This document shows positions 1 to 18,339 of a DNA stretch of 18,339 bases, piece by piece. This stretch comes from Candidatus Hydrogenedentota bacterium (GTDB taxonomy: Bacteria; Hydrogenedentota; Hydrogenedentia; Hydrogenedentales; SLHB01). The position numbers and the translations under genes are program-made. Position 1 is the stretch's first letter. Each line of letters starts with the position of its first letter. Under the pieces are notes generated by a model. It did no database searches. It was not told the origin of the DNA and saw only the letters and a program-made list of their open reading frames with translations. The stretch is taken from NCBI GenBank assembly GCA_034408725.1, contig JAWXCN010000239.1:1-18339 (forward strand), written 5' to 3'.

Positions 1-3
1 CAA

Positions 4-2497: not shown

Positions 2498-2617
2498 ATG
2501 AAAAAGTTTGTGCCGATCGCGTTGTTGCTGGCCCTAACCGTCCTGTTCTCGACCGGGTGCCCGCGCAGAGTGCCCCTGCTAACAAGCACTATCGCGCCCA
2601 TCGCGGACACGAAATAG
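2498..2617 (+). CDS. Small lipoprotein 1 (39 aa): MKKFVPIALLLALTVLFSTG-CPRRVPLLTSTIAPIADTK
   Basis: Manual translation. AAGGAG RBS at 2485-2490, basic N-region, hydrophobic H-region and lipobox-like FSTG|C with Cys21. Paralogous to the next two ORFs. Confidence 0.9.
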   Translation: MKKFVPIALLLALTVLFSTGCPRRVPLLTSTIAPIADTK

Positions 2618-2693
2618 ACCAAAGCACGCTTATTGAATGCTCTCGCCTGCATCGTGTGCCGGCGAGGAACTACCAAACAAGGGGATACATTGT

Positions 2694-2810
2694 ATGAAGC
2701 AGTTAGTCGCAATCGTAGCATTGTTGGCGGTCACGGTGCTCTTCTCGACAGGGTGCCCGCGCACCACCGTTTTGTCGAAATCAGCCGCCCCGGTCGCGGA
2801 ATCCAAGTAA
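2694..2810 (+). CDS. Small lipoprotein 2 (38 aa): MKQLVAIVALLAVTVLFSTG-CPRTTVLSKSAAPVAESK
   Basis: Manual translation. AAGGGGA RBS at 2679-2685. Shares TVLFSTGCPR with ORF1 but with synonymous codon differences (ACC GTC CTG / ACG GTG CTC), and has Cys21. Confidence 0.9.
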   Translation: MKQLVAIVALLAVTVLFSTGCPRTTVLSKSAAPVAESK

Positions 2811-2880
2811 TTCAGAAGGGTCCGCTCCAAGGCGGGTGTGCGTTGCACGCGCCTGTAAAGCGGTTTGAGGAGACAACTAA

Positions 2881-2997
2881 ATGAAACGGTTTGCAGCATT
2901 GATGGTGTTGTTGGTCGCGGTTGCGGCAGTGTCCATGGGATGCCCGCGCGTAGAACGCGTAGCAATCTCAAGCCCGGCAACCTCCGCCGCGAAGTAA
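2881..2997 (+). CDS. Small lipoprotein 3 (38 aa): MKRFAALMVLLVAVAAVSMG-CPRVERVAISSPATSAAK
   Basis: Manual translation. GAGGAG RBS at 2867-2872, signal peptide with VSMG|C at Cys21, conserved GCPR and C-terminal Lys. Confidence 0.9.
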   Translation: MKRFAALMVLLVAVAAVSMGCPRVERVAISSPATSAAK

Positions 2998-3013
2998 ATA
3001 ACACAAATTACGC

Positions 3014-3052
3014 AAAAGGCGCGGGCGAATCGGTCGCCCGCGTCTTTTTTTT
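3014..3052 (+). terminator. Rho-independent terminator, possibly bidirectional
   Basis: aaaa-ggcgcgggcga-atcgg-tcgcccgcgtc-tttttttt, 16 nt after the stop of lipoprotein 3. Confidence 0.9.
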
Positions 3053-3088
3053 ATTCTAAACCATTCAGGTCCGCGCAATGCTGGAGCT

Positions 3089-3247
3089 GTCGGCGTAGGT
3101 CGTGGACTTAGTGGACGAAGTGGACTCAATGGACGGGATGGATCCGATGGACGATAGATCGCTGCGCCACGCATGATAGGGATCGACGATCTTCGCGACG
3201 TCTTCCGTGGTGAGTTCGCGGTGGACCCGCTCAATGAGCGTTCCCAA
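3089..3247 (-). pseudogene. hsdM: Internal fragment of a type I restriction-modification methyltransferase (HsdM) C-terminal region
   Basis: [30 protein letters not shown]...TYAD resembles the HsdM segment (K)LG.(L/M)(I/V)DR..RELT.EDIAKIADTYHAWR....Y.D, recalled from knowledge of the family. There are no catalytic motifs, and similarity is lost after YAD. Confidence 0.8.
3102..3155. repeat. Six tandem 9-bp repeats RTGGAYnnn
   Basis: gtggactta gtggacgaa gtggactca atggacggg atggatccg atggacgat. Confidence 0.9.
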
Positions 3248-3267
3248 ATGAAAATTTCGGGAACGAG
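3239..3267. repeat. REP-like palindrome or hairpin
   Basis: cgttccc-aaat-gaaa-attt-c-gggaacg(ag), about 14 nt downstream of the ceramidase-family gene's stop. Confidence 0.6.
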
Positions 3268-3279
3268 GAGTATGAATCG

Positions 3280-4731
3280 TTACGTGGTTTTCGCATCCAC
3301 CACTTGAAAATCTTCGGGAGTGCAGAAGTCTTTGAGACGATTCGTGAGTTTGCCGATTTCGATTTGGGATTCGAGCACGAGCTTCTCACCGGCGGCGAGG
3401 CCTACGTAGGTTGCGGCGCCGCCGCCGTATCCGCCGGCGGCGGCATTGAGGACGGTTGGGAAGTAGAGGTGGAAGTCGTTGGAGTAGCCGACGAGGAGCG
3501 CGCGGCGATGATTGAATAATTTGCGGATTGGGGCCATCATCGGCACGGTGAAGGAGGGAGTGATATTGGTTTCGGGCCATAGTGGCGCATGCGCTTTCAG
3601 GTCAAGCTGGTGTTGGGTGAAGAGTTCGCCGGGGACGAATGCGAGCGCGAGTTCGCCGTTGATGAGCAGGACTGAGAGCGGTACCGCGAGGTCCGGTTTG
3701 AGGTCGGCGAGATATCGATCAAACAGGCCACCGTAGACGCCGCGGAACACTTCTTGTTGTTTTGGATCGGTGAAGTCCCAGCGGGTGCCAACTTCGACGT
3801 GTTTTTCGGATAGCGCGAGGCTGGGGTTTTCGGGCGCGGCGGTTTGGATTTGAGGCAGCAGAGCGAGGACGGCGTCCGCGCATTCCTTGCCGGTGGCGCG
3901 CATGGATTCGACGCCGCCCTGATCGCGGGGCGTTTTGTCGAGGTAGGGGTTGATGTCGCCGCAGCCACCCTGGAGGAACAGGCATTCGGCGCCGGATTTT
4001 TCTTTGACGATGCGGCACATTTCGCCGACGTAGTCGGCGCTGTATTCGAGGTTGTCGCCGGCGAGCACGACGGGGTGGCACGCGAAGTGAACGAGGATCG
4101 CGAGCTGTTTACCGTCTGTTGCATCCAGTTTTACAATCGTTGCTTCATAATCGACAGGGTTCGTCGGGCGTTTGTTTTCGTTACGCCACAACATTTCGCA
4201 GGAACCGTCGGGCATGATGAGCCGTCGGTTGTGCGAGATGTCGAACAGGGTCGAGCCTATCCCTATGTTGACGGGCTGGAGTTTGCCCGCGGCTTCGCTG
4301 ATCGATTCCGCCAGTTTTTCCGCGATGGCTAGCACGTGTGGTGCGTCGTCCAATTCCATGATCGGGCCGCCGTGCGTGTGGGATGCGGTGAAGATGCAGT
4401 GCGTCACGCCGGCGGCTTTTGCCTTTTCGCGAATTTTATCGAGCACGGCGGGTCGCGGAGTCCGGCCGAGGTCCATTGTGACGATGGCGATGCTCGTGTC
4501 ACCGGTCCTAAAAACTACGGTGCGCGCATGCAGGGGATCGAGTGTGCCGGTTGACGGCCCTTTTCTGTCGCTGTATCCCCACATGGGCACGCCGGGCGCG
4601 GGGGTAATGTCCCGGATCGCGACGCCTGCCATCATCCCGGAATGCCGCACTGTTTCCCCTCCTACATTTGTGGTAGCCGTTGCCGCGGCGATCGCGGACG
4701 CCGCAATGAATTCCCTGCGCGTAATGTGCAT
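3280..4731 (-). CDS. Tat-exported neutral/alkaline ceramidase N-terminal-domain family hydrolase
   Basis: Twin-arginine signal ITRREFI plus a hydrophobic stretch. Motifs [39 protein letters not shown] and GYSND. GGAGG RBS. Confidence 0.88.
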
Positions 4732-4753
4732 TTATCCCTCCGTTTTATTGGTC

Positions 4754-5170
4754 TCAAGGGACGGGGACGTTGGTGCGTTCCCATTCGAGAAATGCGTCCA
4801 GCTCCGTCCGTACCTGGCGAAACACGGCGGCGAGAATCGCGGCGTCGTCAATGAATCCGCCGAACAGAAAGTCCGGGAGTGCGTCGAACGGCATGATAAA
4901 ATACAGAAGCGCGGCGGTGACGAGCGCGATGGTTTTCCAGGGCACCTTTGTGTACTGGCGGCGTGCGTATGACCGTAGCATGCGCGCGAACGTCTGGACG
5001 TGTCCCCAGGTATCGCCCAGGGCTTTGCGGTATTTTCGCGCGCGTTCCTGCGCGGAGGTGGCCAGCGCTTCCGCCTTGCCGCTGTCTCGGGCGATACGCT
5101 CGGCTTTGCGCACGGGAAGGTCCGGAAGTATCTCCGGCTTAATGGACGATGTAGCGTCTTTGTGGTTCAT
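4754..5170 (-). CDS. YkvA/DUF1232 family membrane protein (start revised to ATG 5170, MNHKD...)
   Basis: VPWKTIALVTAALLYFIMPFDALPDFLFGGFIDD matches the Y..xP.D.xPD...G.xDD signature. AAGGAG RBS at 5183-5178. Confidence 0.88.
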   Translation of the reverse strand: MNHKDATSSIKPEILPDLPVRKAERIARDSGKAEALATSAQERARKYRKALGDTWGHVQTFARMLRSYARRQYTKVPWKTIALVTAALLYFIMPFDALPDFLFGGFIDDAAILAAVFRQVRTELDAFLEWERTNVPVP

Positions 5171-5343
5171 GCCAAGGCTCCTTGTTGCAGCGTGTTCCAT
5201 CATACTCGATAACGTTTTCCGGCGTAGCCCTCGCCAGAATCTGTCGAATGGCGGGGCACAAACTGTTTGGCATGCGGCAAACGTGCTATGTTGTGTAGCG
5301 CACAAGTCGCCGTACACACTCGCTTTACGCCAAAGGTCATATT

Positions 5344-5359
5344 GGGCACAAGCATTGCT
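5344..5359 (+). promoter_or_regulatory. Putative sigma54 (-24/-12) promoter
   Basis: GGGCACAAGCATTGCT versus consensus TGGCACG-N4-TTGCW, with exact GG-N10-GC spacing (5345-46 and 5357-58). Confidence 0.55.
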
Positions 5360-5372
5360 CAACGATTATCCC

Positions 5373-6920
5373 ATGCAATTGTTCGCCATCATAATGTTTC
5401 TGGGGCAATCAAATCTGGCGCCGCCCGAATTCTTCGCGCCAAACGAAGAAGTGCGCGGCTATATTCTTGAAACAATCGGCGGGACGATAAACCATCCCGC
5501 GCTTGATGAACTCGCCGCCACCTACGATGCGGATCTCGCGCGAGTGCCACAGGAAACCGCACTGGAAGACCCGATGCTGTCGTTGGGGTATTTTCTCCGG
5601 TCGTCGGGTGGCGAGGGACGCTACTCGGTGATGCTGTCGCAGGATGTGCCGTGGTTTGGAACCCTGAAAACGCGCGGCAAAAAGGCGGAGGCGGAGGCGG
5701 AACTAACGTTCAACGCGTATCAGCTTGCACGGCTAGAACGCGTCGCGGAAATCAAAAAGGCGTATGCCGAGTATAGCTTTCTTGCCGAACGCACGCGGAT
5801 CGCGATGGAGCAGGTGGATGTGCTGACGTCGCTGAGTGATGTTGCACGATCGCGGTATTCGCTGGGCATCGGTGGGCAGGAAGACCTGTTGCGCATCGAG
5901 ATGGAGGAGGCAAAGCTCCAGGCGTCCTACGATTCTTATGCGCTTGAGAAGAACGCGATGGGCGGAAAACTCAACGAAGCTCTCGGACGCGAGGCCTCTC
6001 CGAATTTACCCTTCCCTCAACCAATGGAGTTGCCACCCCCACCGCCACCGGCGCCCGTCGTGTTGGCGCGTATTCGCATTGCGAATCCGGCGTTGAGCGG
6101 GATGGACGCGGGCATATCGGGTCGCGCGGAAGCAGTCACCCTCGCGCGAAAGAAAGGTTGGCCGGACTTTACGTTTGGCATCAGTTACACCGACATGAAG
6201 GACGTGCGAAACGAACCGCGGACGAGCGCCGTGCTCGATGCGCTCGATTCATCGCTGCGGATTGCCAATCCGCGCGTGCCGATGTTACCGGCGATTCCGC
6301 CGGGTGGGACTGTCATAGCGCGCGCGCGCGCCGCCGCATCCGCTGTATCGGCGGCGCAACGGGACGGCGTAGAAACCGCCTTGCAAGGCGCGATGGATTT
6401 GAACAGCTTTGTCGAACTCGAAAACATGCTCGACAATGAGAAGATGAAAGATGAGGTGATGGTATCCGTCAGCATGAACCTTCCGATATGGCGCAGCAAA
6501 GTGAAGGCTGGTGTGCGGGAAGCGGAGCACCGGAAGAAAGCAGCGGAACACGAAAAGCGGAAAACCACGATCACATTGGAAGGCGCTGCCAAGCTGGCAA
6601 TTTACGGAATCGAGGACGGCTATCGTCGGCTGCGGTTGTACGATGACAACTTGCTACCCAAGATAAAGCAGACGTATGAGACACTCGAAGGCGCGTATGC
6701 GTCGGGCGGCGCTGACGCGGGATTCTTGGACGTGCTTTCTACAGTGCAGACATTGTTGGAATTTGAGGAACAGCGCGCGCAGGCCTTTCGCGACATCCAG
6801 GTAGCAGCCGCCGAGCTCGAATACATCATGGGCGGTCCGTGGACGGCGGAGGAGTCGGCGCCGGTTCTGACGCCGCCGACGGCCGTTTCTGAATCATCGA
6901 AAAAAACTGCACCGGAGTAG
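5373..6920 (+). CDS. TolC/outer-membrane efflux protein, CzcC/CusC-like (start revised to ATG 5373)
   Basis: NHPAL, DPMLSLG, SQDVPWFGTL, ARSRYSLG...QEDLLR, ANPAL, WPDFTFG, SMNLPIW and AYASG...FLDVL OEP repeats. The upstream part of the 716-aa track ORF is antisense to the DUF1232 gene. Confidence 0.88.
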   Translation: MQLFAIIMFLGQSNLAPPEFFAPNEEVRGYILETIGGTINHPALDELAATYDADLARVPQETALEDPMLSLGYFLRSSGGEGRYSVMLSQDVPWFGTLKTRGKKAEAEAELTFNAYQLARLERVAEIKKAYAEYSFLAERTRIAMEQVDVLTSLSDVARSRYSLGIGGQEDLLRIEMEEAKLQASYDSYALEKNAMGGKLNEALGREASPNLPFPQPMELPPPPPPAPVVLARIRIANPALSGMDAGISGRAEAVTLARKKGWPDFTFGISYTDMKDVRNEPRTSAVLDALDSSLRIANPRVPMLPAIPPGGTVIARARAAASAVSAAQRDGVETALQGAMDLNSFVELENMLDNEKMKDEVMVSVSMNLPIWRSKVKAGVREAEHRKKAAEHEKRKTTITLEGAAKLAIYGIEDGYRRLRLYDDNLLPKIKQTYETLEGAYASGGADAGFLDVLSTVQTLLEFEEQRAQAFRDIQVAAAELEYIMGGPWTAEESAPVLTPPTAVSESSKKTAPE

Positions 6921-6940
6921 TGATAATTCACCAAAACGCA

Positions 6941-7123
6941 TCATTGATCGCCAGTGATATATGAATCAATGAATTCTTGTGGATTAAGTACGGGTAGTGA
7001 AGAAACCTCAAAACCTCTTGAGTCACGAGTAACAATCGTTTCACATTTCGCGGCTTCGGCAGTCGCAATGATTACTGCATCCTCGAAATCTTGCGTGGCA
7101 AGGCTACGCGCGCGCTTCAGAAG
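6941..7123 (-). pseudogene. C-terminal half of a PIN-domain (VapC-like) protein, no start codon
   Basis: Manual translation: LLKRARSLATQDFEDAVIIATAEAAKCETIVTRDSRGFEVSSLPVLNPQEFIDSYITGDQ*. DFEDA...IVTR(D/N)...F....PVL.P.EF is the typical PIN C-terminal pattern. The segment is more AT-rich than its flanks. Confidence 0.85.
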
Positions 7124-7726
7124 TCAACCCAGCCTGGTGCGGCCTTGAAGGGCGTGGGACAAGGTAAGACCGTCGGCGAGTTCGAGACCGCTGCCCATGG
7201 GCACGCCGTGGGCAATGCGTGTGACATTGACGCCGGCGCCTTCCAGACGTTTTGCGAGGTAGAGCGCGGTGGACTCGCCTTCCGCCGTCGAATTGGTGGC
7301 AACGATCACTTCGGTCACGCCGCCTTCGGCTACGCGGCGCGCGAGCCTTTCGAAAGTGAGTTCGTCAGGGCCAATGCCGTCGAGCGGATTAATCGCGCCG
7401 TTCAATACGTGATAAAGCCCGCGAAACGTGCCGCCTCTTTCGATTGCGAATGTGCCAGCGGGACGTTCTACAACGCAGATAATGGAATGGTCGCGCGAGG
7501 GGTTTGCGCAGATCGGGCAGGGATCGCTTTCGGTGAGCGTGCAACAAACGGAGCAGGTGGTGATGCGTTCGCGCGCATTGCGTAGCGCGTCGCTCAATTC
7601 CCGTGCTTCATCCGCGGGCGCGCTGAGAATGTGCAACGCATAGCGTTCCGCGGTGCGTTTGCCGACACCGGGCAATCTGCGAAAGGCTTCAACAAGCCGC
7701 TCAACTGACGGCGACTCGAATAACAC
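7124..7726 (-). CDS. recR: Recombination mediator RecR
   Basis: LPGVGKRTAER HhH, CSVC...CPIC zinc finger, ICVVE, YHVLNGAINPLDGIGPDEL, ATNSTAEGESTA and RIAHGVPMG. Confidence 0.98.
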   Translation of the reverse strand: MLFESPSVERLVEAFRRLPGVGKRTAERYALHILSAPADEARELSDALRNARERITTCSVCCTLTESDPCPICANPSRDHSIICVVERPAGTFAIERGGTFRGLYHVLNGAINPLDGIGPDELTFERLARRVAEGGVTEVIVATNSTAEGESTALYLAKRLEGAGVNVTRIAHGVPMGSGLELADGLTLSHALQGRTRLG

Positions 7727-7729
7727 CGT

Positions 7730-8245
7730 CTAACCTCGCGTGCCCGTTGCCAGGAGGCGGCCCCGGATATCTTCCCATTCCTGCATTTTGGCGTGCCGCG
7801 TCAAGACATCGACACGGTCCAGAATCAGGGCGCCATTGAGGTGATCAAATTCGTGCTGAATAATGCGCGCGAGAAAATCAGTGGCTTCAAAATCGACCGG
7901 CTCGCCTTTTTCATTCAAGGCGCGCACGTGAATCCGCGTCGCGCGCGGAACCTGCACATAAATTTCCGGCAGGCTCAAGCACCCTTCCTGACCCACGTCG
8001 CGGCCCTCGAGTTCGGTGATCTCGGGATTAATGAGGCACATTTTTTCGCCGTCGGGTTCGTGCAAGACGAAGAGCCGTTTTGCCACGCCGACCTGCGGCC
8101 CGGCTAGTCCGACGCCTTCACTCGCGTACATCGTCTCGAACATGTCTTCCACGAGCCGTTGTATCGCTGGGCCGACGCGGTCTATCGGGGCGGCGACCTG
8201 GGTCAACGGATCGTCGGGGTAAAACACGATGTTCAAGACGCTCAT
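7730..8245 (-). CDS. def: Peptide deformylase
   Basis: GVGLAGPQVG, EGCLS and QHEFDHLNG motifs. Confidence 0.98.
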   Translation of the reverse strand: MSVLNIVFYPDDPLTQVAAPIDRVGPAIQRLVEDMFETMYASEGVGLAGPQVGVAKRLFVLHEPDGEKMCLINPEITELEGRDVGQEGCLSLPEIYVQVPRATRIHVRALNEKGEPVDFEATDFLARIIQHEFDHLNGALILDRVDVLTRHAKMQEWEDIRGRLLATGTRG

Positions 8246-8315
8246 TCAACCTGCTCCACTGCGAGCGCGAATACGCTCAAAAAACCTTTTCAAGATTAGC
8301 ACACGGCGCAATGGC

Positions 8316-10397
8316 CTACAACAGCGGTTTCCCTTCTAAATCCGTGGGCACTGCCGCGCCAAGATAATGCAGCGCGGTGACACCCAAATCGATGATACCG
8401 GGCTTTTCAGTATTGATTTTTTTATTCGAGAAAAATATGCCTGGTGTGTTTGCCACGTCGGAACTGCCGTGTTCGCCGCTCCATTTGTCGTCGTTGATTT
8501 CCAACAAGGCTTCGGGCGCGGAGCCACTGACGGTTGCCTTGCTCGATTGGAATCCATCGGCATAGCCCAGTTGCAGGTCAGGCGCGTCCGCGGAGGCGGC
8601 CCCGGTGAAAACTTCTTTCGTATAGATAGCGTCGAACAATTTCTCGCCTGTTTCGGGATCGGTGAACGCAAGGAGTTTTTGCCGGATTTCGCCGGCCAAC
8701 GCATCGGCGTCTTCGGCGCTGACGATTCCTTGGCCTTCGCGTCCCTTCATGTTTATAAAGATGCTTCCAAGCCCAAGGCTATAGGCCCTCGATTTCGTCC
8801 AATCGAAACCGGACAAAAACGATTGATCCTTCGTCGTGTACGCGGTTGCCGGATCGGTCTGACCGACAACGTTCAAAAATCCGTTGCGCACGAGCCACGT
8901 ATTAACATTGAGGCCCTTGCGAAAACTCTTGAACCCGTGATCAGAGAGGATCATCAATAAATCATCGGGGGCAAGCTTGGCCATGACCTTGCCGACCGTA
9001 CCGTCCATTGCCTTATAGGTGTTCTCGACGGCACGACCGTATTGTTTTGCGCCTGCTTCCGTGTAGAGAGGATGTTTTTGATCGCGGAACCGCCAGAACA
9101 TATGCGATACGCGGTCGGGACCCGTCCACGCGGCGATGACCATGTCATGCACATTGCGATCCATCTCGTCCACGGTAAGACGCTCGTTCCATGTCATCGA
9201 ATTCGCTACGTCCTCGAGGAAAGCGTCGTCGGACAGCGCGTCCTTGCGCACCGCGTGCGTGTCGAACGACCATCCGATGGTTTTGAACAGGCCGTACTTA
9301 TCCATCAGTTCGGAGGAATACGTTTCCGGAGTGGATAACCGGATATAGGGCGCTTTCGGATGGAATTGCAGACATGCCATATAGACGTTGACCTGATCGC
9401 CGGCCTCCATAGCGTAGAACCGGCTGATGGCCTTCACCGTAAATTTGGGCGACACCTCAAAAGACCATTCAATCCATTTTGACCATTCGTTCTCGGCCAG
9501 CTCCAAGGTCTCTGCTGGCGTTTTTATGGACACCTTCTTTGCGCCGCGGTCCACGGTGAATTCGAGCGGGACTTGAACAAATCCTTCGGGCGACCCATAA
9601 GGTTTTAGTGGGTTGCGCGCACCCGGAATGGTTACCGACGCGACATTGTCCGTAAATGAGAGCGGAAGCAATATGCCGCCCGCGACATTTTCCGGCGCGG
9701 CATGAGACTCGGAAAACGAAAAATACGTGCTGTCCGTGCCACGAATATCCGTTACGCCCAGCCCGCAGAGCATGCACCCTTGGGCGAGGTCTTCCGCGGG
9801 AAACGCGAACGGCACCAACAACGCGGCGCATTTTAGTCCCTGTTGATCGGCGATTTTCCAGAAGGAATCGCCTTTGCGCAATGAAACGAATTTTGCGGGC
9901 TCTGTCACTGCGCCATCCGGGCCAAGCTTTGCATGTTCGGACGACCCGAAGCCCTTCCTCGGGCCATACCTCGACGGGTCGCGCGTTATAAAATCATATA
10001 TTCCGTGCGCGCCGGTGTTCTTGCACGTCGCAAACGACGACCACGCGGATGGAGATTGAGGCGGAATCGCCGAAGTCAGACGCGCATACGATCCTGTATC
10101 ACGCAGCTTCGCGAGGTTTGGCAACTCTCCCGCATCGAGCATCGTGTCGACGATCGTGGGTTCGACGCCGTCAAAACCGAGGATGACGACCCTGCCTTTC
10201 TTCACTCCGGCAGGCGCGATAGGCGCAGCCTGCTTCGGTGCATTGGCCGCGACTTGCGCAGCCGGGGATTCAGTGGGCGCGCCAATCGCGTTGGCCGATT
10301 GCGCGCCGCCACTTCCAAAGAAAACTACCGCTAGGCCTAGCGCAAGTAATAGCATCAGGACCAGGGTGAGTAATAGCATTTTAGGGTTGGGCTGCAT
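8316..10397 (-). CDS. Membrane-anchored alkaline-phosphatase-superfamily protein (type I phosphodiesterase/nucleotide pyrophosphatase); start revised to ATG 10397
   Basis: N-terminal TM helix. ILGFDG, PPQSPSAWSSFAT (Ser nucleophile), DRVSH, SDHG and WSGEH metal-ligand motifs. AAGGA precedes ATG 10397. Confidence 0.88.
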   Translation of the reverse strand: MQPNPKMLLLTLVLMLLLALGLAVVFFGSGGAQSANAIGAPTESPAAQVAANAPKQAAPIAPAGVKKGRVVILGFDGVEPTIVDTMLDAGELPNLAKLRDTGSYARLTSAIPPQSPSAWSSFATCKNTGAHGIYDFITRDPSRYGPRKGFGSSEHAKLGPDGAVTEPAKFVSLRKGDSFWKIADQQGLKCAALLVPFAFPAEDLAQGCMLCGLGVTDIRGTDSTYFSFSESHAAPENVAGGILLPLSFTDNVASVTIPGARNPLKPYGSPEGFVQVPLEFTVDRGAKKVSIKTPAETLELAENEWSKWIEWSFEVSPKFTVKAISRFYAMEAGDQVNVYMACLQFHPKAPYIRLSTPETYSSELMDKYGLFKTIGWSFDTHAVRKDALSDDAFLEDVANSMTWNERLTVDEMDRNVHDMVIAAWTGPDRVSHMFWRFRDQKHPLYTEAGAKQYGRAVENTYKAMDGTVGKVMAKLAPDDLLMILSDHGFKSFRKGLNVNTWLVRNGFLNVVGQTDPATAYTTKDQSFLSGFDWTKSRAYSLGLGSIFINMKGREGQGIVSAEDADALAGEIRQKLLAFTDPETGEKLFDAIYTKEVFTGAASADAPDLQLGYADGFQSSKATVSGSAPEALLEINDDKWSGEHGSSDVANTPGIFFSNKKINTEKPGIIDLGVTALHYLGAAVPTDLEGKPLL

Positions 10398-10555
10398 GAA
10401 TAATTCATCCTTCAATCAGTATTTGCCTTCGGAATGGCCCCGAGTATATCAGTCAAACAGCCGGGTTGCACGCAACAAGGGCGTGTGATTACCATAGTGC
10501 CGTGTCTTAATAAGGTGTGGCATATCAATCGATTTTTTTGGGGAGGAATCGTATC

Positions 10556-10999
10556 GTGCAAAGCAAGGCTTTTCTAAATCTGTGCATTTGTTTGTTTGCG
10601 ATGGCAGTCGCTGTGGGCTGTGCCACGACGGGCGGTGGCGACGCCGCTGCCCAGAAACCTGCTGACGACAAGGCGGCCATCACGAAAGTCCTCAACGACT
10701 GGGGTGCGGCGCTCGCGACGAAAAACATCGACACCATCGTTACCTTCTACTCCGACAGCTTTTCAGATTCCGACGGCCGCGGCAAGCCGGAGATGAAAGG
10801 CTTCCTTCAGGAGGTCATCGACGCGGGTTATCTCGACGGCGCCAAGGTGGACCTTACGACAACGGTAATCACGGTCAACGGCGATCAAGCGACGGCGACT
10901 CCCGTGAATCTTTCCGGTGACATGGGCGCAATTCCGCTGTCGTTAACCTTGAAAAAAGAAGCGGCTGGCTGGCGCATCGCCAGCAGCAGCCAGGGTTAG
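10556..10999 (+). CDS. Lipoprotein with an NTF2/SnoaL-like domain (start revised to GTG 10556)
   Basis: GGGAGG RBS at 10541-10546, lipobox AVG|C, and an NTF2-like pattern: AITKVLNDWGAAL..KNIDTIVTFYSDSF...LKKEAAGWRI. Confidence 0.8.
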   Translation: MQSKAFLNLCICLFAMAVAVGCATTGGGDAAAQKPADDKAAITKVLNDWGAALATKNIDTIVTFYSDSFSDSDGRGKPEMKGFLQEVIDAGYLDGAKVDLTTTVITVNGDQATATPVNLSGDMGAIPLSLTLKKEAAGWRIASSSQG

Positions 11000-11019
11000 C
11001 ACGCAGACGATTATTTTTG

Positions 11020-11052
11020 GAGCACCCCCGCGTTTGCCGCGCGGGGGTGTTC
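11020..11052 (+). terminator. Strong GC hairpin (terminator or attenuator-like)
   Basis: gagcacccccgcg / cgcgggggtgttc 13-bp stem with G-U pairs, 20 nt after the stop. The U-tail is weak (gtatt). Confidence 0.55.
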
Positions 11053-11093
11053 GTATTCAGGCGCAACATTTTCACGGCGGAAGGAATGGAATC

Positions 11094-11852
11094 ATGCGGT
11101 TGAAGGATAAAGTGGCGATCATCACCGGCGCGGGTCTCGGCATGGGCCGCGAGGCCTCGCTGTTGTTCACCACGGAAGGCGCCAGCGTCGTTGTATTCGA
11201 CATGAACGCGGAATCGGGCAATGAAACCGTCGCGCTCATTAAAAAGGCGGGTGGCGCCGCCGTTTTTGTTCAAGGCGACGCGAGCAAGGAAAGCGATGTT
11301 AGGACCGGAATTGATGAGGCGGTGAAGAACTTCGGCAAGCTGGATATCCTGTATGCAAATGCCGGCGTGCTCTGGAAGGACCGAGACAAGTCCGTGATCG
11401 ATACGACGGAGGAAAATTGGGACAAGGTCCAGGCTATCAATCTGAAGGGCCCGTTTTTCCTTACCAAGCACGGTATACCCGCGTTGCGCAATGCTGGCGG
11501 CGGCTCGATTATTCTGGTTGGATCAATTTCCGCATTGGCAGGGTTTACGCTCGCGCAGGATTCGTACACCTGTGCAAAAGGCGCGCTCATCTCTCTTTGT
11601 AAATCACTCGCCATACAATTCGCGCCGGAACAGATTCGCTGCAACATCATCCACCCCGGTTTCATCGATACACCGTTGCAGGCGCCTTATCTAAATGAAC
11701 AAAAGCGCACCGCGATTGCGAGCGAGATTCCGATGCGCAGGCTAGGCAACGCGCGGGACATCGCCAACGCCGCCCTCTTCCTCGCATCCGATGAATCGGC
11801 GTGGATGACCGGTGCGGAAATGGTGGTGGATGGCGGGTTCCTGGCTATGTAA
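11094..11852 (+). CDS. Classical SDR oxidoreductase, FabG/glucose-dehydrogenase-like (start revised to ATG 11094)
   Basis: MRLKDKVAIITGAGLGMG, NAG, YTCAK, PGFIDT and VDGG. AAGGA upstream. Confidence 0.93.
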   Translation: MRLKDKVAIITGAGLGMGREASLLFTTEGASVVVFDMNAESGNETVALIKKAGGAAVFVQGDASKESDVRTGIDEAVKNFGKLDILYANAGVLWKDRDKSVIDTTEENWDKVQAINLKGPFFLTKHGIPALRNAGGGSIILVGSISALAGFTLAQDSYTCAKGALISLCKSLAIQFAPEQIRCNIIHPGFIDTPLQAPYLNEQKRTAIASEIPMRRLGNARDIANAALFLASDESAWMTGAEMVVDGGFLAM

Positions 11853-11856
11853 GGGA

Positions 11857-11878
11857 GGGCGCGTGGGGACACGCGCCC
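11857..11878. repeat. Perfect 9-bp hairpin between convergent genes (REP-like or terminator)
   Basis: gggcgcgtg-ggga-cacgcgccc. Confidence 0.5.
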
Positions 11879-11912
11879 ACCCGGTATCAGCGCGCGGGGA
11901 GGCGCGTTGTAC

Positions 11913-12122
11913 CTATACTTTTTTTATGTGGCCGCGGCATTGAATCATGGGTAATCGCGGGTATTTTGGAAATGATTTGTCTTCATCCGATTTGCCGCAA
12001 CGCCAATAGGAGTGGCCTCCATGTGGATGGGGCAGCACCCGGGCATGAACACATGTGGCGCACAGGCCGACCCTGGCCTTCTCGATTTCCGAATCGTCTG
12101 ATTCTCCGGGTTCCATGTACAT
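11913..12122 (-). CDS. Small hypothetical 4-Cys (probable metal-binding) protein
   Basis: GLCATCVHAR...YWRC..S..D..FPKYPRLP...C.G: CxxC plus two further Cys. It fills an otherwise empty intergenic space and resembles a conserved small hypothetical family. The start could be 12122 or 12116. Confidence 0.75.
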   Translation of the reverse strand: MYMEPGESDDSEIEKARVGLCATCVHARVLPHPHGGHSYWRCGKSDEDKSFPKYPRLPMIQCRGHIKKV

Positions 12123-12250
12123 TCACCCGTCCGCTGCAGTTATTGAGGCCATTCGACCAGCCTACGTGTTAAACTCCCGGAATCCAATCCCGTAGTACCT
12201 GGAGTCTAATGCTTGCCTGGTAATTGGCGTGAGCCTGGTTCGACGCAAGG

Positions 12251-15127
12251 ATGTACTTTGTGAAAAGAGCAGTTCTGAGTTTCCTGGTGGCTGCCGCTCT
12301 GGTGGGCGTTGGCATCGGCGCGTATTGGGCGACAACGCGCCGGCCAGCCGAATCGCCTCGGGCGCAGACACCTGTCACGAATGTACCGGACACGCCAGCA
12401 AGCACACCGGATGTAAAGGCAACTTCCACTCCGGACAACCTCGTCCGCGTTTTCGGTGCGGTGACTGATGCCGCGACTGGCGCGGTGATTGAAGGAGCAC
12501 AGGTGCGCGCGCGGCGGGAGGGTCCGCAAGAGGATGGCGATGCGCCGGAGCCCGCGGAATCACTGAGCGACGTGAGCGGTGTGTTCGAGGTGCGCGTCGA
12601 GCCAGGCGTTTATAACGCGATTCTTTGCAGCGCACCGGGCTATACCCGGCAGCGAAACACGTTGCGCACGGAGAATCGCAGCGAGTTGCGGATCGACTTC
12701 CAACTCATGCGCGGCGGCACTATCTCCGGGATGATTTCAGACAAAGGCACCCAAAAACCGATTGAAGGGATTGGCGTCGAATTGGTCGGCGCACAGGAAA
12801 ACGTCATGGAACGGTTGCAGTCGCGCGGGCAGGACCCAAGCCGGCGAGCACAATCGCAACCAGACGGAAGCTACGCGCTTGATGGAGTCCCACCGGGGTC
12901 GTACCGGTTGGCCCTAAGCATGCGGGACAGCGGCTACCTCTATAAGCCAGAGGACACAGTCCCAATTGAAGTTTCTGCGGGAAGCATCATTTCGGACGTA
13001 AATTTTACTCTGGAACGCGGGGCGGAGGTGTCGGGCACTGTCATAGACACGAATGGAACACCCGTGGCAAACGCGCTGGTGACGGCCATGCCGGCACAGA
13101 TGATTCAACGCACGATGCGGCGCATGAACGCCGGTCTACTCATGGATATTGAGCCGGGAAATGCGCGCACGGACGAAACTGGCGCGTTCACCGTGCGCGG
13201 ATTGGAAATCGAGCCGGAATATCGCATGCTCGGACATGCGGACGGATACGCGGACGCGACAAGCGAGCCATTCACAATCGGACGCAATGTTTCCGCGCCT
13301 CATCTCACCATTACCTTGGGCCGCGGGAGCGCGATGTCTGGGACCGCGAAAAAGGTTGATGGTGCGCCTGCCGCGAACGCGGAACTCATGCTCGTCCCTG
13401 ACTCCGGGGAAGGTTGGACAGGTTTCAATGGTCCGAGGACGGTCCGCGCGGCTGATGATGGCACGTTTACGCTGGAGCATATTCCCGCGGGGGCGTATTG
13501 GCTGAGGCCTCAAGCCGACTTTGGCGGCGGCATGATTGCCAGCCGTTCGGCGCGGACACGAAGCAAGGCTTTGCGCGTGGAAGTGGATGGAAAGACGGAC
13601 ATCACGGGCCTTGAAGTCATCGTTGCCGATGAAGAAACGAAAGATGAACCGGCGCAGGGTACTATTCGCGGAACCGTCGTGCGGGACAATGATACGCCTG
13701 CCGCGGACGTGCGAGTCGAAGCACGCGCGGTCGGAAATCCAGGGCGAAGTTATGGCGCAACAACTGCCGCGGACGGCACGTTTGAACTAACAGATCTGCG
13801 TGGGCCTGCTTTCGATTTAAGCGTATCGTCGGATGAGGGCATTGCGAATCAACCGGCGGTGGCCGTTGGCGCGACGGTGACCTTGCAATTGACGCCGCCG
13901 GCGTCGATTAGCGGTCATGTCACCGACCTCGCCGGCGATCCCGTGCCGAATGCCCGCGTGAGTTTGTCGAACGAGGGTGAGACCGGAAAAATATCGTCGT
14001 TCATTTCGATCATGCAAGGGATGTTTGGGGGCGAACCCGGCGGACAGCGCACGGACGGCAATGGTCATTTCGAGTTCACGAAACTTGCCCCGGGAGCGTA
14101 TGTCGTTAAGGCAGAGAGCGCTTCTAAAGGCAGTGCGGAATCGGCCATGACGCAAGTTGCGGCAGGCCAGGACGTGATGAACCTGCAGATACTCCTGAAT
14201 CCCGGTGTGAGTGTCGGCGGGACAGTTGCCGGGCCAGGTGGCGAACCCGTGCAGGGCGCAACGATACAACTTGCGCCGATGACGCAGGATCTGGCGGCGA
14301 ATCTCGTGTCTGAATTCATTCCGGCCGGTGTATTGAAGACGGCTGGAACAACTTCATCTGCCGCGGACGGTGGCTTCAGCATTCCGCAAGTTGCGCCGGG
14401 GACGTACAGGCTGGTGGTATCGCATGGCAATTATGCGAAGACCGTTGTGCAAGGGTTCAGCGTTTCGCCCGGACAGGACATTACCGGATATCGCGTGACG
14501 CTGGGCAAGGGCGGTGAAGCGCGCGGCACGTTCACGCTGGATGGAAAGCCGCGGCCTGGCGCGATGATCGTGATGCTCAGTGAGTCTGGCGTCGAACTTG
14601 TGCAGACCGACAGCCAGGGCCGGTTTCAGGTATCGGGTCTCACGTCGGGACCGCACATGATCGCTGCGTTTGATCCTTCTCGCATTGGCTCGATGGGCGA
14701 GGGCATGCAGTTTAATCCTGAAGTTGTCGATATTGCGGAGGGACAGACCGAAGATATCTCGCTCGGCGGAGTTGGCGGCGTCGAGGTGTCCGGCATGATC
14801 AATGGCGATCTTGGCACGCTCACACTGGTCGCTCTGCGCAAGCCCGATGGCACACCGCTCGAAGGACTCGACCTTACGAATTTCGCGAACCTGCTCGAAT
14901 CGTTTAGATCGCTCGGTGGGCAGACGATGGTGGGACCCGACGGCAGTTTCGCGCTCGACAATGTCCCGCCCGGCAGTTACACACTTGAGGTGTATTCGAT
15001 GGACTTTGACGAGTCTAATCCCGATATCACTGCCTTGCTCAATCTTCCCCGCACGCCTGTCCATCGCCAACCTATCGAGATTGGAGTGGATTCACAACCT
15101 GTTCAAATCGATCTGCCGGCGCCGTGA
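12251..15127 (+). CDS. Secreted or membrane-anchored protein with about 9 carboxypeptidase-regulatory-like (CarboxypepD_reg) beta-sandwich repeats
   Basis: N-terminal TM/signal, Pro/Thr-rich linker, and recurring (I/V)SG.V.D..G.P(V/I)..A.V ... T(D)..G.F.(L/I)..(L/V)..G.Y.L modules. Confidence 0.88.
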   Translation: MYFVKRAVLSFLVAAALVGVGIGAYWATTRRPAESPRAQTPVTNVPDTPASTPDVKATSTPDNLVRVFGAVTDAATGAVIEGAQVRARREGPQEDGDAPEPAESLSDVSGVFEVRVEPGVYNAILCSAPGYTRQRNTLRTENRSELRIDFQLMRGGTISGMISDKGTQKPIEGIGVELVGAQENVMERLQSRGQDPSRRAQSQPDGSYALDGVPPGSYRLALSMRDSGYLYKPEDTVPIEVSAGSIISDVNFTLERGAEVSGTVIDTNGTPVANALVTAMPAQMIQRTMRRMNAGLLMDIEPGNARTDETGAFTVRGLEIEPEYRMLGHADGYADATSEPFTIGRNVSAPHLTITLGRGSAMSGTAKKVDGAPAANAELMLVPDSGEGWTGFNGPRTVRAADDGTFTLEHIPAGAYWLRPQADFGGGMIASRSARTRSKALRVEVDGKTDITGLEVIVADEETKDEPAQGTIRGTVVRDNDTPAADVRVEARAVGNPGRSYGATTAADGTFELTDLRGPAFDLSVSSDEGIANQPAVAVGATVTLQLTPPASISGHVTDLAGDPVPNARVSLSNEGETGKISSFISIMQGMFGGEPGGQRTDGNGHFEFTKLAPGAYVVKAESASKGSAESAMTQVAAGQDVMNLQILLNPGVSVGGTVAGPGGEPVQGATIQLAPMTQDLAANLVSEFIPAGVLKTAGTTSSAADGGFSIPQVAPGTYRLVVSHGNYAKTVVQGFSVSPGQDITGYRVTLGKGGEARGTFTLDGKPRPGAMIVMLSESGVELVQTDSQGRFQVSGLTSGPHMIAAFDPSRIGSMGEGMQFNPEVVDIAEGQTEDISLGGVGGVEVSGMINGDLGTLTLVALRKPDGTPLEGLDLTNFANLLESFRSLGGQTMVGPDGSFALDNVPPGSYTLEVYSMDFDESNPDITALLNLPRTPVHRQPIEIGVDSQPVQIDLPAP

Positions 15128-15160
15128 CAGGTTGCATTTCATGGTAGTGCATCCAGAACG

Positions 15161-17599
15161 ATGAAGCAGATCGCATCCATCATTCTATGCGCGGGCAGAG
15201 GACGCCGCATGCAGGCCCGGCGCATGCCGAAGGTGTGTTTTCCGATTGCGGGGAAACCGGCAGTGCTGCATCTTTTGGAACACCTGCGCGGTCTCGAGGT
15301 GACGCCCAATATCCTCGTCGTGGGACATTTAGCGGGCAAAGTGATCGACGAGGTCGGGCCAAAATTTCCAGAGGCGGCATTTGTCTATCAGGCCGAACTT
15401 CTTGGCACCGGCCACGCAGCGAAACAGGGCGCGGCAATGTTACAGGGTCTCGGATTCGACGGCGCGGTGCTAATCGTCGCGGGCGACAAAGTGATCGAGC
15501 GGCGGGCGCTCGACAAATTGCTGACGTCATTTGATCGGGAGCAACCGGACATTGCGCTGCTTACCGCGCCGAAGTCACGCTGGCCCAACGCGGGACGCAT
15601 CATCACGGATACGGCGGGAAAGGTGCTTCGCGTCATTGAACGCGCGGACCTTGCCAATGCCGAATCCCGCGATATCACCTTCCATCTGGGTAACGAGACG
15701 ATAAGCGCCGCGGAACTCGAAGCAAACACTACCTGCGTGAATCAAGCGGTCTATTTATTCAAAGCATCTGTGCTGTTTGAATCGCTTGACGCATTGTCTC
15801 GCGGCAATGTTCAAAAAGAAGAATATCTCACCGATACAATTGCGTACGTCGTTGAACGGGGTGGACACGTGTTGCCTGTCCCCGTCGATGCGCCTGACGA
15901 TGTGCTGGCATTCAACAATCCCGAAGAACTGCTGGAAATCGAGGACTTTTTCCGGACCAAGGGCATTTCGACACTTCAACGAGAGGCGACACCAAACCCG
16001 ATAATTTTCAAACCCCCAGCGGAATGGGCCGCGCGCCTACGGAATCCCGATGAATCAATGAAGTCCCTGTTCCGCGACATCTATGGGTCAAATGACGCGC
16101 TACGGGAACAAAAGCGGCTTCGGCTGCTCGCAGCGGTTGAGCTTTTCATCGAACATTTTGGGACCAGCGGCGCGGTAACCGTGGTTCGCGCGCCTGGCCG
16201 AATTAATCTTATGGGCCGACACGTCGATCATCGCGGGGGCTGCGTGAACCTTATGGCGATCGACCGCGAGCATATTCTTGTGGCGCGGCCGCGTTCCGAT
16301 GGGGTCGTGCGCGCGCGAAATGCCGAGGTCTCCCAGTTCCCGGACATCGAGTTCAGTGTTGGAGATCTGCTCGAAAAGGTTGGGCTCGACGACTGGCGGG
16401 AATTCGTGAACAGCGGCATCGTGATGTCGATGGTACGTGACCTCGCGGGCGACTGGGGCAATTACCTGAAGGCGCCCATGCTGCGCCTCCAACAACAGTT
16501 CAAGGACCGCCTCATTCACGGGGTTGATTGCATCGTCACCGGTGACATACCGATGGCCGCGGGGTTGAGTTCTTCTTCCGCGTTGGTGGTGGCCATGGCA
16601 GAAGCCCTTGTGCTTTCAAACGCGCTTGATGTGTCTTCACACGATCTTGTTGACGTGTGCGGCGAAGGAGAATGGTTTGTTGGCACGCGAGGGGGAAGCG
16701 CCGATCACGCCGCAGTGAAACTGAGCCAGTCACGCCGCGTCGCCCACGTGTGCTTCTTCCCATTTGCCATCAAGGACTACCTGCCGTTCCCCGAAGACTG
16801 TTCACTTGTGATCTGCAATTCGCGCGTGCAGGCGCGAAAAGCGGCAGGCGCGCGAGAAACCTTTAACGAGCGCATTGCATCGTACGAATTTGCGGTGCGC
16901 TGGGTGAAAAAGCGGTTCCCGCACTACGCGCCATTGATTCAACATCTTCGCGATGTGGCGCCGGACACGCTCGGCATTCGCCCCGCGGATATTTATCGCA
17001 TCCTGCTTGAAGTGCCGGAACGCATTACACCAGCCAAACTTCGCGACGAACTTGGCGACGAGCAGTTAGATGTCTTGCACGTCCCGCCGCGGGAGTATGA
17101 ATTGCGCGGCCGCCTCTTGTTTGGCATTGCGGAATGCGAACGGAGCAGGAGGGCGCACGATGCGCTAAAACGCGGCGACATGCCTCGCCTCGGCACGTTG
17201 ATGAACATCTCTCATGACGGAGATCGCGTGCGCCGCTCAAACAATTCGCCCGGCATTGCCGATCTTTCGGACGCCGCTTTGCAAACATTCATCGGTGGCC
17301 TGGCCAGCGAAGATGGGCGCCGCGTCGAGTCCGCGCAGATTTACGCGCAACCCGGGGTTTACGCGTGCAGCATCCCTGAAATTGACCGGATGGTCGATAT
17401 CGCCAAAGATTGCCCAGGCGTTTTTGGGGCTCAGTTGTCGGGCGCGGGCCTTGGCGGATGCATGATGGTACTCGTGTCCCGCGACGCTGGAGACGCAGTC
17501 ATCGAGCGCTTGAACGAACAGTACTACGGATTGAGTGGTCTAGAACCGGGCGCGTTCAATTTTAGCCCAATTGCGGGGTCTGGCCCATTGGCGATTTAG
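15161..17599 (+). CDS. Bifunctional sugar-1-phosphate nucleotidyltransferase (GlmU N-domain-like) / GHMP anomeric sugar kinase (galactokinase-like)
   Basis: N-terminal: ILCAGRGRRM...PKV, Q.ELLGTGHA, GD and N.QKEEYLTD. C-terminal: RAPGRINLMGRHVDH, IPMAAGLSSSSA and GAQLSGAGLGG. Confidence 0.92.
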   Translation: MKQIASIILCAGRGRRMQARRMPKVCFPIAGKPAVLHLLEHLRGLEVTPNILVVGHLAGKVIDEVGPKFPEAAFVYQAELLGTGHAAKQGAAMLQGLGFDGAVLIVAGDKVIERRALDKLLTSFDREQPDIALLTAPKSRWPNAGRIITDTAGKVLRVIERADLANAESRDITFHLGNETISAAELEANTTCVNQAVYLFKASVLFESLDALSRGNVQKEEYLTDTIAYVVERGGHVLPVPVDAPDDVLAFNNPEELLEIEDFFRTKGISTLQREATPNPIIFKPPAEWAARLRNPDESMKSLFRDIYGSNDALREQKRLRLLAAVELFIEHFGTSGAVTVVRAPGRINLMGRHVDHRGGCVNLMAIDREHILVARPRSDGVVRARNAEVSQFPDIEFSVGDLLEKVGLDDWREFVNSGIVMSMVRDLAGDWGNYLKAPMLRLQQQFKDRLIHGVDCIVTGDIPMAAGLSSSSALVVAMAEALVLSNALDVSSHDLVDVCGEGEWFVGTRGGSADHAAVKLSQSRRVAHVCFFPFAIKDYLPFPEDCSLVICNSRVQARKAAGARETFNERIASYEFAVRWVKKRFPHYAPLIQHLRDVAPDTLGIRPADIYRILLEVPERITPAKLRDELGDEQLDVLHVPPREYELRGRLLFGIAECERSRRAHDALKRGDMPRLGTLMNISHDGDRVRRSNNSPGIADLSDAALQTFIGGLASEDGRRVESAQIYAQPGVYACSIPEIDRMVDIAKDCPGVFGAQLSGAGLGGCMMVLVSRDAGDAVIERLNEQYYGLSGLEPGAFNFSPIAGSGPLAI

Positions 17600-17639
17600 G
17601 TTGGCGGAGAAATACGAATTGTGAACAAACTGCACTTAG

Positions 17640-17668
17640 TAGACAAATTGGAAAGGTTGTGATATTCT
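17640..17668 (+). promoter_or_regulatory. Putative sigma70 promoter for the PilZ gene
   Basis: TAGACA (17640-45), 17 nt spacer, TATTCT (17663-68) with extended TG-n. Confidence 0.55.
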
Positions 17669-17693
17669 TTCCACGGCATTAGGAGTGCCGGGC

Positions 17694-18131
17694 ATGTCAC
17701 GATACAATACCAACGTCGCTTGGTCTGATCCGTTCGAACCGAAAAAGAGCAACCAGCGCGACTCGGAACGCTTCAAGTTCCGGATCAAAATCTCGATCAC
17801 CGCGCAAAACGGAAATCCTCCCCAACGCCTTGTGGGACCGGGCATTGTACGGAATATTTCTGTATGCGGCGCGTGGTTTGTGACCAAGCATCACCTGGAA
17901 ATCGGTCAAAAAGTGGTCATTGGAATCCCGACGCAACGCTTCGCGGTAACCGACTATTTGCCGGCAATGTTCATCGGGCCTGCCGTGGTTTCACGTCTCT
18001 TGCCAGACACTGACGGGCGGGTCTGGGCAGGAATCCGGTTTGGAGACCTTTTGGCACAGAATATGGAATTCGCATCGTTTATTCAGGGACTGTACTCGTT
18101 GCGGCAGGCGCTTACACGAAAAGAAGAGTAA
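17694..18131 (+). CDS. PilZ-domain protein (probable c-di-GMP receptor); start revised to ATG 17694
   Basis: QRDSER (RxxxR) and NISVCG (D/NxSxxG) motifs, GIRF near the C-terminus, and an AGGAG RBS at 17681-17685. Confidence 0.85.
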   Translation: MSRYNTNVAWSDPFEPKKSNQRDSERFKFRIKISITAQNGNPPQRLVGPGIVRNISVCGAWFVTKHHLEIGQKVVIGIPTQRFAVTDYLPAMFIGPAVVSRLLPDTDGRVWAGIRFGDLLAQNMEFASFIQGLYSLRQALTRKEE

Positions 18132-18214
18132 CCGGCGCGCGCCCGCGCGTCTTTGCGTTTCCGACATCCCCTCCCCTACACTTCCCCGCGTTTGGCCGTT
18201 GGAGATTATTCCCC

Positions 18215-18339
18215 GTGATCCTTCCTGACCGGAAAATAAAAGAATTGTTGGCAAGTGGTGAACTGCGGATCGATTCGCTCGACCCGCGGCAGATAGGCCC
18301 GGCGTCGGTTGACCTGCGGTTGGGGAGATCGTTTTTGAC
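18215..18339 (+). CDS. dcd: dCTP deaminase, 5' partial (runs off the window)
   Basis: Manual translation from GTG: MILPDRKIKELLASGELRIDSLDPRQIGPASVDLRLGRSFL. The PASVDLRLG signature is present, with a GGAG RBS at 18201-18204. Confidence 0.92.
   Translation, partial: MILPDRKIKELLASGELRIDSLDPRQIGPASVDLRLGRSFL

Follow-up and report, generated by a model that had tools for sequence, protein, structure and literature searches.

We identified a fused two-domain enzyme gene in an 18,339-nucleotide stretch of DNA from a Candidatus Hydrogenedentota bacterium (GCA_034408725.1, contig JAWXCN010000239.1, positions 1-18,339, forward strand), referred to here as the window. The gene occupies positions 15161-17599 on the + strand and encodes an N-terminal nucleotidyltransferase domain related to GlmU followed by a kinase domain of the galactokinase type. 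Both domains have the folds of these enzyme classes, and residues that align with catalytic positions are conserved in each. The protein probably couples two activities, that of an ATP-dependent kinase acting on the anomeric position of a sugar and that of a UTP:sugar-1-phosphate uridylyltransferase. Conversion of a free sugar to a sugar-1-phosphate and then to a uridine diphosphate (UDP) sugar is the most likely reaction sequence because the 92 relatives compared conserve the active sites of both domains. The fusion belongs to a real, widespread and uncharacterised family of bifunctional enzymes, and the logic of its two steps is already known from the fusion enzymes Fkp and DrGKUP.

Domains and active sites of the fusion

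The gene consists of a single open reading frame (ORF) encoding 812 amino acids with no internal stop, the stop codon being included in the coordinates. It is matched by a 100%-identical database entry and by full-length relatives with 39–72% identity. The ATG at position 15161 is the right start codon, since residue 7 already opens the conserved IILCAGxGxRM motif of the N-terminus. In the database the protein (P0002) is 796 amino acids long; this gene call begins too far downstream and would cut off the conserved G-x-G-x-R-M motif.

Searches of the protein against Pfam identified NTP_transf_3 (residues 7–144), GalKase_gal_bdg (327–377), GHMP_kinases_N (434–520) and GHMP_kinases_C (729–789), with no match to Hexapep. 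The NCBIfam models for GlmU (TIGR01173 and related equivalogs) match only over their first ~245–260 profile positions, corresponding to the pyrophosphorylase half, and score 71–133 bits compared with cut-offs of 367–725. Against the galactokinase model TIGR00131 the protein reaches 161 bits, below the cut-off of 226.65. An AlphaFold2 model built on an alignment of 92 family sequences has a predicted local distance difference test (pLDDT) score of 89.5 and a predicted template modelling (pTM) score of 0.81, and the pLDDT falls below 50 at residues 271–274 only. Structural comparison using VIA-align matches residues 1–273 to GlmU pyrophosphorylase domains (Z 31–34, root-mean-square deviation ~1.5 Å over ~250 residues) and residues ~313–812 to galactokinases (Z 36–39.5). 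No solved chain found by Foldseek spans both halves of the protein, and the query-normalised TM-score does not exceed 0.47. A look-up in the ESM Atlas added nothing.

From these matches the protein can be divided into four parts, all encoded on the + strand. Residues 1–270 (15161–15970) make up the predicted GlmU-type sugar-1-phosphate uridylyltransferase domain, as judged from the domain matches, the alignment with GlmU and the fold, and no left-handed beta-helix (LbH) follows it. A short linker of 12 residues (~271–282; 15971–16006) is the sole low-confidence stretch of the model. The next segment (residues ~283–325; 16007–16135) is a helical extension with invariant residues W289 and Y308 and modelled helices at 286–333. 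The stand-alone paralog of the kinase in the same genome can be aligned to the fusion from residue 284 onward. The extension is shared with stand-alone paralogs and is therefore part of the kinase and not of the linker. The galactokinase-type GHMP kinase domain itself comprises residues 326–812 (16136–17596), as supported by Pfam, sequence alignments and the fold match.

An initial annotation of the window, made from the sequence alone, had described a single uninterrupted ORF with a GlmU-like pyrophosphorylase domain, no hexapeptide acetyltransferase domain and a full GHMP kinase. The ORF analysis, the GlmU matches that stop at profile position ~260, the lack of a Hexapep match, and the three Pfam kinase modules together with the fold match all bear this out. 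The description of the kinase as galactokinase-like stands for the fold. It does not extend to galactose as the substrate, given the score below the cut-off, the human GalNAc kinase GALK2 as best relative and an arginine at a signature position (see below).

The nucleotidyltransferase domain carries the G-x-G-x-R-M...P-K signature and aligns by BLASTP with residues 6–242 of E. coli GlmU; residue conservation was counted in the alignment of 92 relatives. The equivalent positions in the fusion and in GlmU are R16 (R18), K24 (K25), Q77 (Q76), G82 (G81), T83 (T82), D109 (D105), G145 (G140), E160 (E154), N194 (N169) and N252 (N227). Eight of the ten are invariant (92/92 each), while K24 is retained in 91 and R16 in 86 relatives. 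We take these residues to include the catalytic arginine and lysine, the residues for uracil recognition, two metal ligands and the contacts to the hydroxyls of N-acetylglucosamine (GlcNAc). Every GlmU residue taken to bind nucleotide, metal or GlcNAc has a counterpart in the fusion. The domain also departs from GlmU in a motif and an insertion. The motif GDK replaces GDVP of GlmU, with K110 being lysine in 89 relatives and arginine in three, and the fusion has 19 additional residues between E160 and N194. This insertion is longer in relatives of ~900 amino acids.

The kinase domain was compared with human GALK1 and GALK2 and with the GalK proteins of L. lactis and E. coli. R347 (91/92), D515 (91/92) and a serine-rich P-loop, PMAAGLSSSSA (92/92), align with the catalytic arginine, the catalytic aspartate and the phosphate loop of galactokinases. 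The glutamate of the galactokinase GEH motif is replaced by Arg353 (codon 16217–16219, + strand) in all 92 relatives, making this position a candidate specificity determinant, and the glutamate of the GALK2 motif TEGGG is likewise replaced by R510 in all 92. F568 is phenylalanine in 89 relatives, as it is in GALK2, whereas L. lactis and E. coli GalK have tyrosine. An insertion of ~41 amino acids follows the SHDGDRV motif. Thus the domain has the GHMP fold, signature, P-loop and catalytic aspartate and arginine of a galactokinase, but it scores below the family cut-off and lacks both the GEH glutamate and the tyrosine preceding N-x-R. Among solved structures, human N-acetylgalactosamine (GalNAc) kinase is the best match to the kinase domain, with an E-value of 6e-34 by sequence and 2e-28 by Foldseek. 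A weaker relative, 'AbGHMP' (PDB 9ulx), was also found, and a search for a paper describing it returned none.

Distribution of the family and conservation of Arg353

The fusion is found in many bacterial phyla. A word-indexed protein search returned 2219 proteins at E ≤ 0.001 among 8000 scored candidates. Nearly all of the best 120 of these matches are full-length fusions of 780–940 amino acids, and they come from Hydrogenedentota (56–72% identity), Phycisphaerae, Anaerolineae, Brocadiia, Sumerlaeia and Spirochaetia. In GTDB genomes, sampled at one per species, at least 506 relatives were confirmed among 598 pattern-matched stretches, and the loci retained include examples from Planctomycetota, Acidobacteriota, Verrucomicrobiota, Victivallales, Chloroflexota, Clostridia, Limnochordia, Latescibacterota and Kuenenia. 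An exhaustive HMMER search of representatives clustered at 50% identity gave 527 matches at E ≤ 1e-30. The range of the family thus takes in Hydrogenedentota, Planctomycetota, Acidobacteriota, Verrucomicrobiota, Lentisphaerota, Chloroflexota, Bacillota and others. Among those Hydrogenedentota genomes in which the gene occurs, 19 carry it full-length in one frame, three have it split by contig ends or a low-complexity insertion, and two have a longer form. Most of the remaining genomes of the phylum have only a stand-alone paralog with 30–37% identity.

The fusion is not an assembly artefact, because the same architecture recurs in hundreds of genomes of many phyla. The initial annotation had itself raised this possibility, and the chance that faulty assembly or gene calling joined two adjacent genes is now negligible. 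The gene has one open frame with a linker of only 12 residues, and full-length relatives occur in independent assemblies and phyla. The only oddity that would speak for an artefact is a single relative with a polyproline run of ~330 residues inside the gene. This ortholog (L091:2702-6166, - strand; genome G093, contig C3, the same record as L046) encodes 1154 amino acids and comes from a long-read metagenome-assembled genome. The near-pure polyproline run begins after residue ~378, is in frame and has no Pfam match. An intein was considered here and rejected, and the run is probably a low-complexity or assembly artefact.

Several relatives are considerably longer than the fusion in the window. 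Pfam searches of those between 885 and 1314 amino acids identified no new domain. In two of them, P0227 (1314 amino acids) and P0247 (1129 amino acids), an Arg-type kinase is accompanied by a divergent nucleotidyltransferase, large insertions and a hexapeptide-like stretch that separates the two domains.

The arginine at the GEH position is closely associated with the fusion. We examined 138 near-complete kinase domains, drawn from the representative search and controls, in which the fused state was scored by a hidden Markov model (HMM) of the nucleotidyltransferase domain. Arginine occupies the position in 63 of 65 fused kinases, the other two having a serine and a lysine. Eight long proteins that this HMM does not score as fused all have arginine, and in two of the eight (P0227 and P0247) the divergent nucleotidyltransferase is visible by eye. 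The stand-alone kinases are more diverse, arginine being present in 37, methionine in 10, valine in 8, threonine in 4 and other residues in a few. Short contigs may have truncated some of these genes, leaving only a fragment that counts as stand-alone. Such entries are interleaved with fused ones in a FastTree phylogeny, and the Met, Val and Thr types form subclades that are exclusively stand-alone.

As an unbiased check we searched 301 evenly drawn Planctomycetota genomes, 14 of which have a match at E ≤ 1e-80. All six fused kinases in this sample carry GRH. All seven stand-alone kinases carry GMH (Arg in 0/7) and are Met-type paralogs, and the remaining match is a contig-end fragment. Within these sequences, Arg353 goes with fusion to the nucleotidyltransferase.

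One stand-alone Arg-type kinase was verified, in genome G001 (L092, contig C49, 6582-10197). The nucleotidyltransferase HMM found no match, and no split form, in the fetched flanks of this kinase or of the seven Planctomycetota stand-alone kinases. The G001 gene adjoins genes for a HAD hydrolase, a LacY-like MFS transporter and a sulfatase with an N-sulphoglucosamine-sulphohydrolase (SGSH) C-terminal domain. This single locus may hint at the use of a sulfated amino sugar.

Predicted reaction and candidate sugars

In the mechanism we propose, the C-terminal galactokinase-type domain would transfer phosphate from ATP to a free sugar at its anomeric hydroxyl, with D515 as the likely catalytic base and R347 as its partner. 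The N-terminal GlmU-type domain would then convert the sugar-1-phosphate and UTP to a UDP-sugar and pyrophosphate, using R16, K24 and the putative metal ligands D109 and N252. The product would be a UDP-sugar and not one with another nucleoside diphosphate (NDP), based on the conserved GlmU residues. A direct route from free sugar to UDP-sugar had been suggested in the initial annotation, and the architecture and the conserved sites lend it support.

As the sugar we tentatively propose a 2-acetamido hexose, of the GalNAc or GlcNAc type, perhaps with a negatively charged group at C6 that Arg353 would bind. A 2-acetamido sugar is favored because the aligned GlmU-type pocket residues are invariant, GALK2 is the best relative of the kinase, and F568 corresponds to the GALK2 phenylalanine. 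However, the replacement of both the GEH and the TEGGG glutamates by arginine in every relative suggests something other than a plain hexose or N-acetylhexosamine (HexNAc). If the mechanism is right, plain GalNAc or GlcNAc has somewhat less than an even chance of being the substrate and an anionic 2-acetamido sugar a distinctly smaller one; a plain uronic acid has a slightly smaller chance still, and galactose or some other sugar makes up the remainder.

Arg353 may mark an anionic group at C6. This leads to a broader proposal, which we regard as rather unlikely, that the family salvages an anionic amino sugar into its UDP form and that the GEH residue acts as a code for the C6 substituent. Under such a code glutamate would specify CH2OH, methionine, valine or threonine a deoxy or absent group, and arginine an acid group. 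Candidate sugars are the N-acetylated uronic acids GalNAcA, GlcNAcA and ManNAcA, or a 6-O-sulfated HexNAc from surface or marine polysaccharides. We raise this possibility because GlmU-like HexNAc ligands are conserved alongside a GALK2-like phenylalanine, because Arg353 is invariant and a family-specific lysine (Lys110) lies in the second active site, and because kinases with glutamate, methionine and arginine coexist in one genome while arginine and the fusion are strictly linked in the unbiased sample. We know of no described salvage route for anionic amino sugars.

The genome from which the window comes encodes three galactokinase-type kinases, with glutamate, methionine and arginine, respectively, at the GEH position. 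The first, on contig C273, is a canonical protein of 474 amino acids that scores above the TIGR00131 cut-off and has both GEH and the signature tyrosine. The second, on contig C200 (L089:5855-7540, + strand), is a stand-alone kinase of 561 amino acids with GMH and tyrosine. It resembles the fusion in its HDGDR motif, and also has the insertion and N-terminal extension. Met-type kinases like this one occur in most genomes of the phylum, and also in Planctomycetota, and are never fused. The third is the fusion itself, with GRH and phenylalanine. The genome also encodes a separate archaeal-type GlmU on contig C194 (L090:4503-5777, + strand) that scores 487 bits against TIGR03992 (cut-off 292); GlmU serves in the de novo synthesis of UDP-GlcNAc. 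No bacterial-type GlmU in the genome reaches the cut-off, and the best match to the bacterial model is the N-terminal domain of the fusion. Given a separate archaeal-type GlmU and a canonical galactokinase, the fusion appears to provide an extra, specialised route.

Other sugars can be considered for the same two steps. The enzyme could act on a plain uronic acid, converting galacturonic acid (GalA) or glucuronic acid (GlcA) to UDP-GalA or UDP-GlcA in the manner of DrGKUP or of plant GalAK together with UDP-sugar pyrophosphorylase (USP). Such a substrate would account for an invariant arginine in place of the galactokinase glutamate taken to contact the C6 hydroxyl, and for the basic residue K110 (89/92 Lys, 3/92 Arg) following the metal-binding aspartate. 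The three NDP-sugar dehydrogenases above cut-off in the genome indicate, in addition, that the organism uses UDP-uronic acids. We nevertheless consider a plain uronic acid unlikely, as all of the GlmU residues presumed to bind GlcNAc are invariant and Phe568 is shared with GalNAc kinase, tyrosine being the residue in those galactose kinases that were compared. Galactose or glucose is very improbable as the substrate. The idea here is that the fusion bypasses the Leloir pathway, making UDP-Gal by way of Gal-1-P and thereby compensating for a missing GalT. GalT, noted initially as absent from the window, in fact has no match to PF01087 anywhere in the genome, which is 92% complete, and the kinase fold is that of galactokinase. 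However, the fusion kinase falls short of the galactokinase cut-off and lacks the signature glutamate and tyrosine, while the separate kinase on C273 exceeds the cut-off and has both. The pyrophosphorylase is also GlmU-like (up to 133 bits) and not of the GalU or UDP-glucose type, for which the AglF model scores 56 bits.

It is also conceivable that only one step takes place, one of the domains being a dead enzyme that serves as a sensor or regulator like Gal3p. Gal3p structures are among the fold matches to the kinase and provide a precedent for an inactive galactokinase relative. The initial annotation had anticipated an inactive domain as a way in which it might fail. We give this little credence, since the catalytic aspartate, arginine and P-loop of the kinase and the arginine, lysine and metal ligands of the GlmU-type domain are kept in 86–92 of the 92 relatives, and both domains are modelled at high confidence. 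A role in the recycling of N-acetylmuramic acid (MurNAc), analogous to AmgK/MurU, was judged less likely. D356, which aligns with the O3/O4-binding aspartate of galactokinases, is kept (84 Asp, 7 Glu and 1 Ala among the 92 relatives), and the gene is patchy in the phylum.

Several points weigh against the reaction from free sugar to UDP-sugar, or against the 2-acetamido sugars that we favor. Both activities, the order of the steps, the use of UTP and the sugar we infer from sequence comparison. The positions of GlmU Tyr103 (Met, Ala or Pro) and Tyr139 (mostly Ala) are not conserved in the 92 relatives, so the fusion and GlmU differ in their sugar pockets. Arginine can form a hydrogen bond to a plain hydroxyl, and hence Arg353 is no proof of an anionic substrate. 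The contact of the GEH glutamate with the C6 hydroxyl and the roles of Tyr236 and of the GlmU residues are assumptions, and a search for literature on how GALK1, GalK and GlmU contact their sugars yielded nothing usable. The gene is present in only ~24 of 135 genomes of its own phylum. Its genomic context offers little help. Among 957 crude ORF calls from 80 related loci and the window, the largest cluster of neighbors is found at 6 of 81 loci, and no Pfam family occurs in more than three of 134 immediately flanking genes (of 136, the two longest were dropped).

No conserved neighboring gene that would point to the sugar was found at these loci, and synteny is already lost in a relative with 71% identity (L001). 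In the window, the gene upstream (12251-15127, + strand) encodes a 958-amino acid protein with eight CarboxypepD_reg (transthyretin-like) domains and ends 33 bases before the fusion gene. The gene 85 bases downstream (17685-18131, + strand) encodes a 148-amino acid PilZ-domain protein, a possible receptor for cyclic di-GMP. Neither neighbor recurs in relatives. A scan for promoters and terminators around the fusion gene performed no better than shuffled controls; the best terminator-like hairpin of the region (18134-18151) lies after the PilZ gene. Two genes on the opposite strand encode a 699-amino acid protein resembling type I phosphodiesterase/nucleotide pyrophosphatase (8316-10415, - strand) and a 483-amino acid protein with a weak match to the N-terminal domain of neutral ceramidase (3280-4731, - strand).

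If active as predicted, the fusion would take a free sugar all the way to a UDP-sugar within one compact enzyme. It would bear on how these bacteria, which degrade polysaccharides, reuse sugars for their own glycans, and would be a candidate tool for the chemo-enzymatic synthesis of UDP-sugars. The exchange of glutamate, methionine and arginine at one position also provides a testable specificity rule for enzymes of the galactokinase family.

Comparison with known systems

A search of the full text of the papers available found none on the fusion family, returning only Fkp, DrGKUP and reviews. This agrees with the initial annotation, which knew of no characterised example; the search likewise found no characterised ortholog. 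As parallels the annotation had named Fkp, which holds, and had omitted DrGKUP, a second precedent.

The individual domains are each related to a well-known enzyme. The nucleotidyltransferase domain superimposes closely on GlmU and keeps its aligned catalytic and sugar-contact residues. However, the 19-residue insertion, the altered Tyr103 and Tyr139 positions and the GDK motif set it apart, and without an LbH acetyltransferase domain the fusion does not qualify as a GlmU. Nor is it a galactokinase, because it scores below the NCBIfam cut-off and its signature residues differ. Human GALK2 (2a2c/2a2d) works with a separate UDP-HexNAc pyrophosphorylase. GALK2 is the best solved relative of the fusion kinase, is similar in length and has phenylalanine at the galactokinase tyrosine position. 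However, the two share only 23–28% identity, GALK2 retains the GEH glutamate that is Arg353 in the fusion and the TEGGG glutamate that is R510, and it lacks the ~41-residue insertion after the SH motif. In the fusion, the kinase is joined to its presumed partner enzyme.

Two fusions provide closer parallels. The vertebrate example, zebrafish DrGKUP, is described as a glucuronokinase with a putative UDP-glucuronate pyrophosphorylase, whose pyrophosphorylase activity could not be confirmed with recombinant protein (PMC3938481). As described there, it resembles the fusion in having a short bacterial-type nucleotidyltransferase (~260 amino acids) N-terminal to a GHMP sugar-1-kinase, and a UDP-sugar is the proposed product (PMC3938481). 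It differs in being eukaryotic and in having a kinase described as homologous to plant glucuronokinase (PMC3938481), whereas that of the fusion belongs with the galactokinases and GalNAc kinase.

The enzyme Fkp of Bacteroides fragilis, known as FKGP in plants, is an L-fucokinase/GDP-L-fucose pyrophosphorylase that converts a free sugar to an NDP-sugar (PMC11982464). The fusion in the window follows the same logic and domain order, the nucleotidyltransferase preceding the GHMP sugar-1-kinase in a single chain. The initial annotation had proposed this likeness along with a different pyrophosphorylase domain, and the domain and fold matches agree on both counts. The pyrophosphorylase is of the GlmU type instead of the GDP-fucose type, the kinase is of the galactokinase/GALK2 type instead of a fucokinase, and UTP is expected as the substrate in place of GTP. 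No Fkp chain was found at E ≤ 0.001 in the sequence search of solved structures or among the fold matches listed. The protein in the window also has no beta-helix linker domain, whereas the layout of the long relatives P0227 and P0247 is nearer to the three-part architecture of Fkp.

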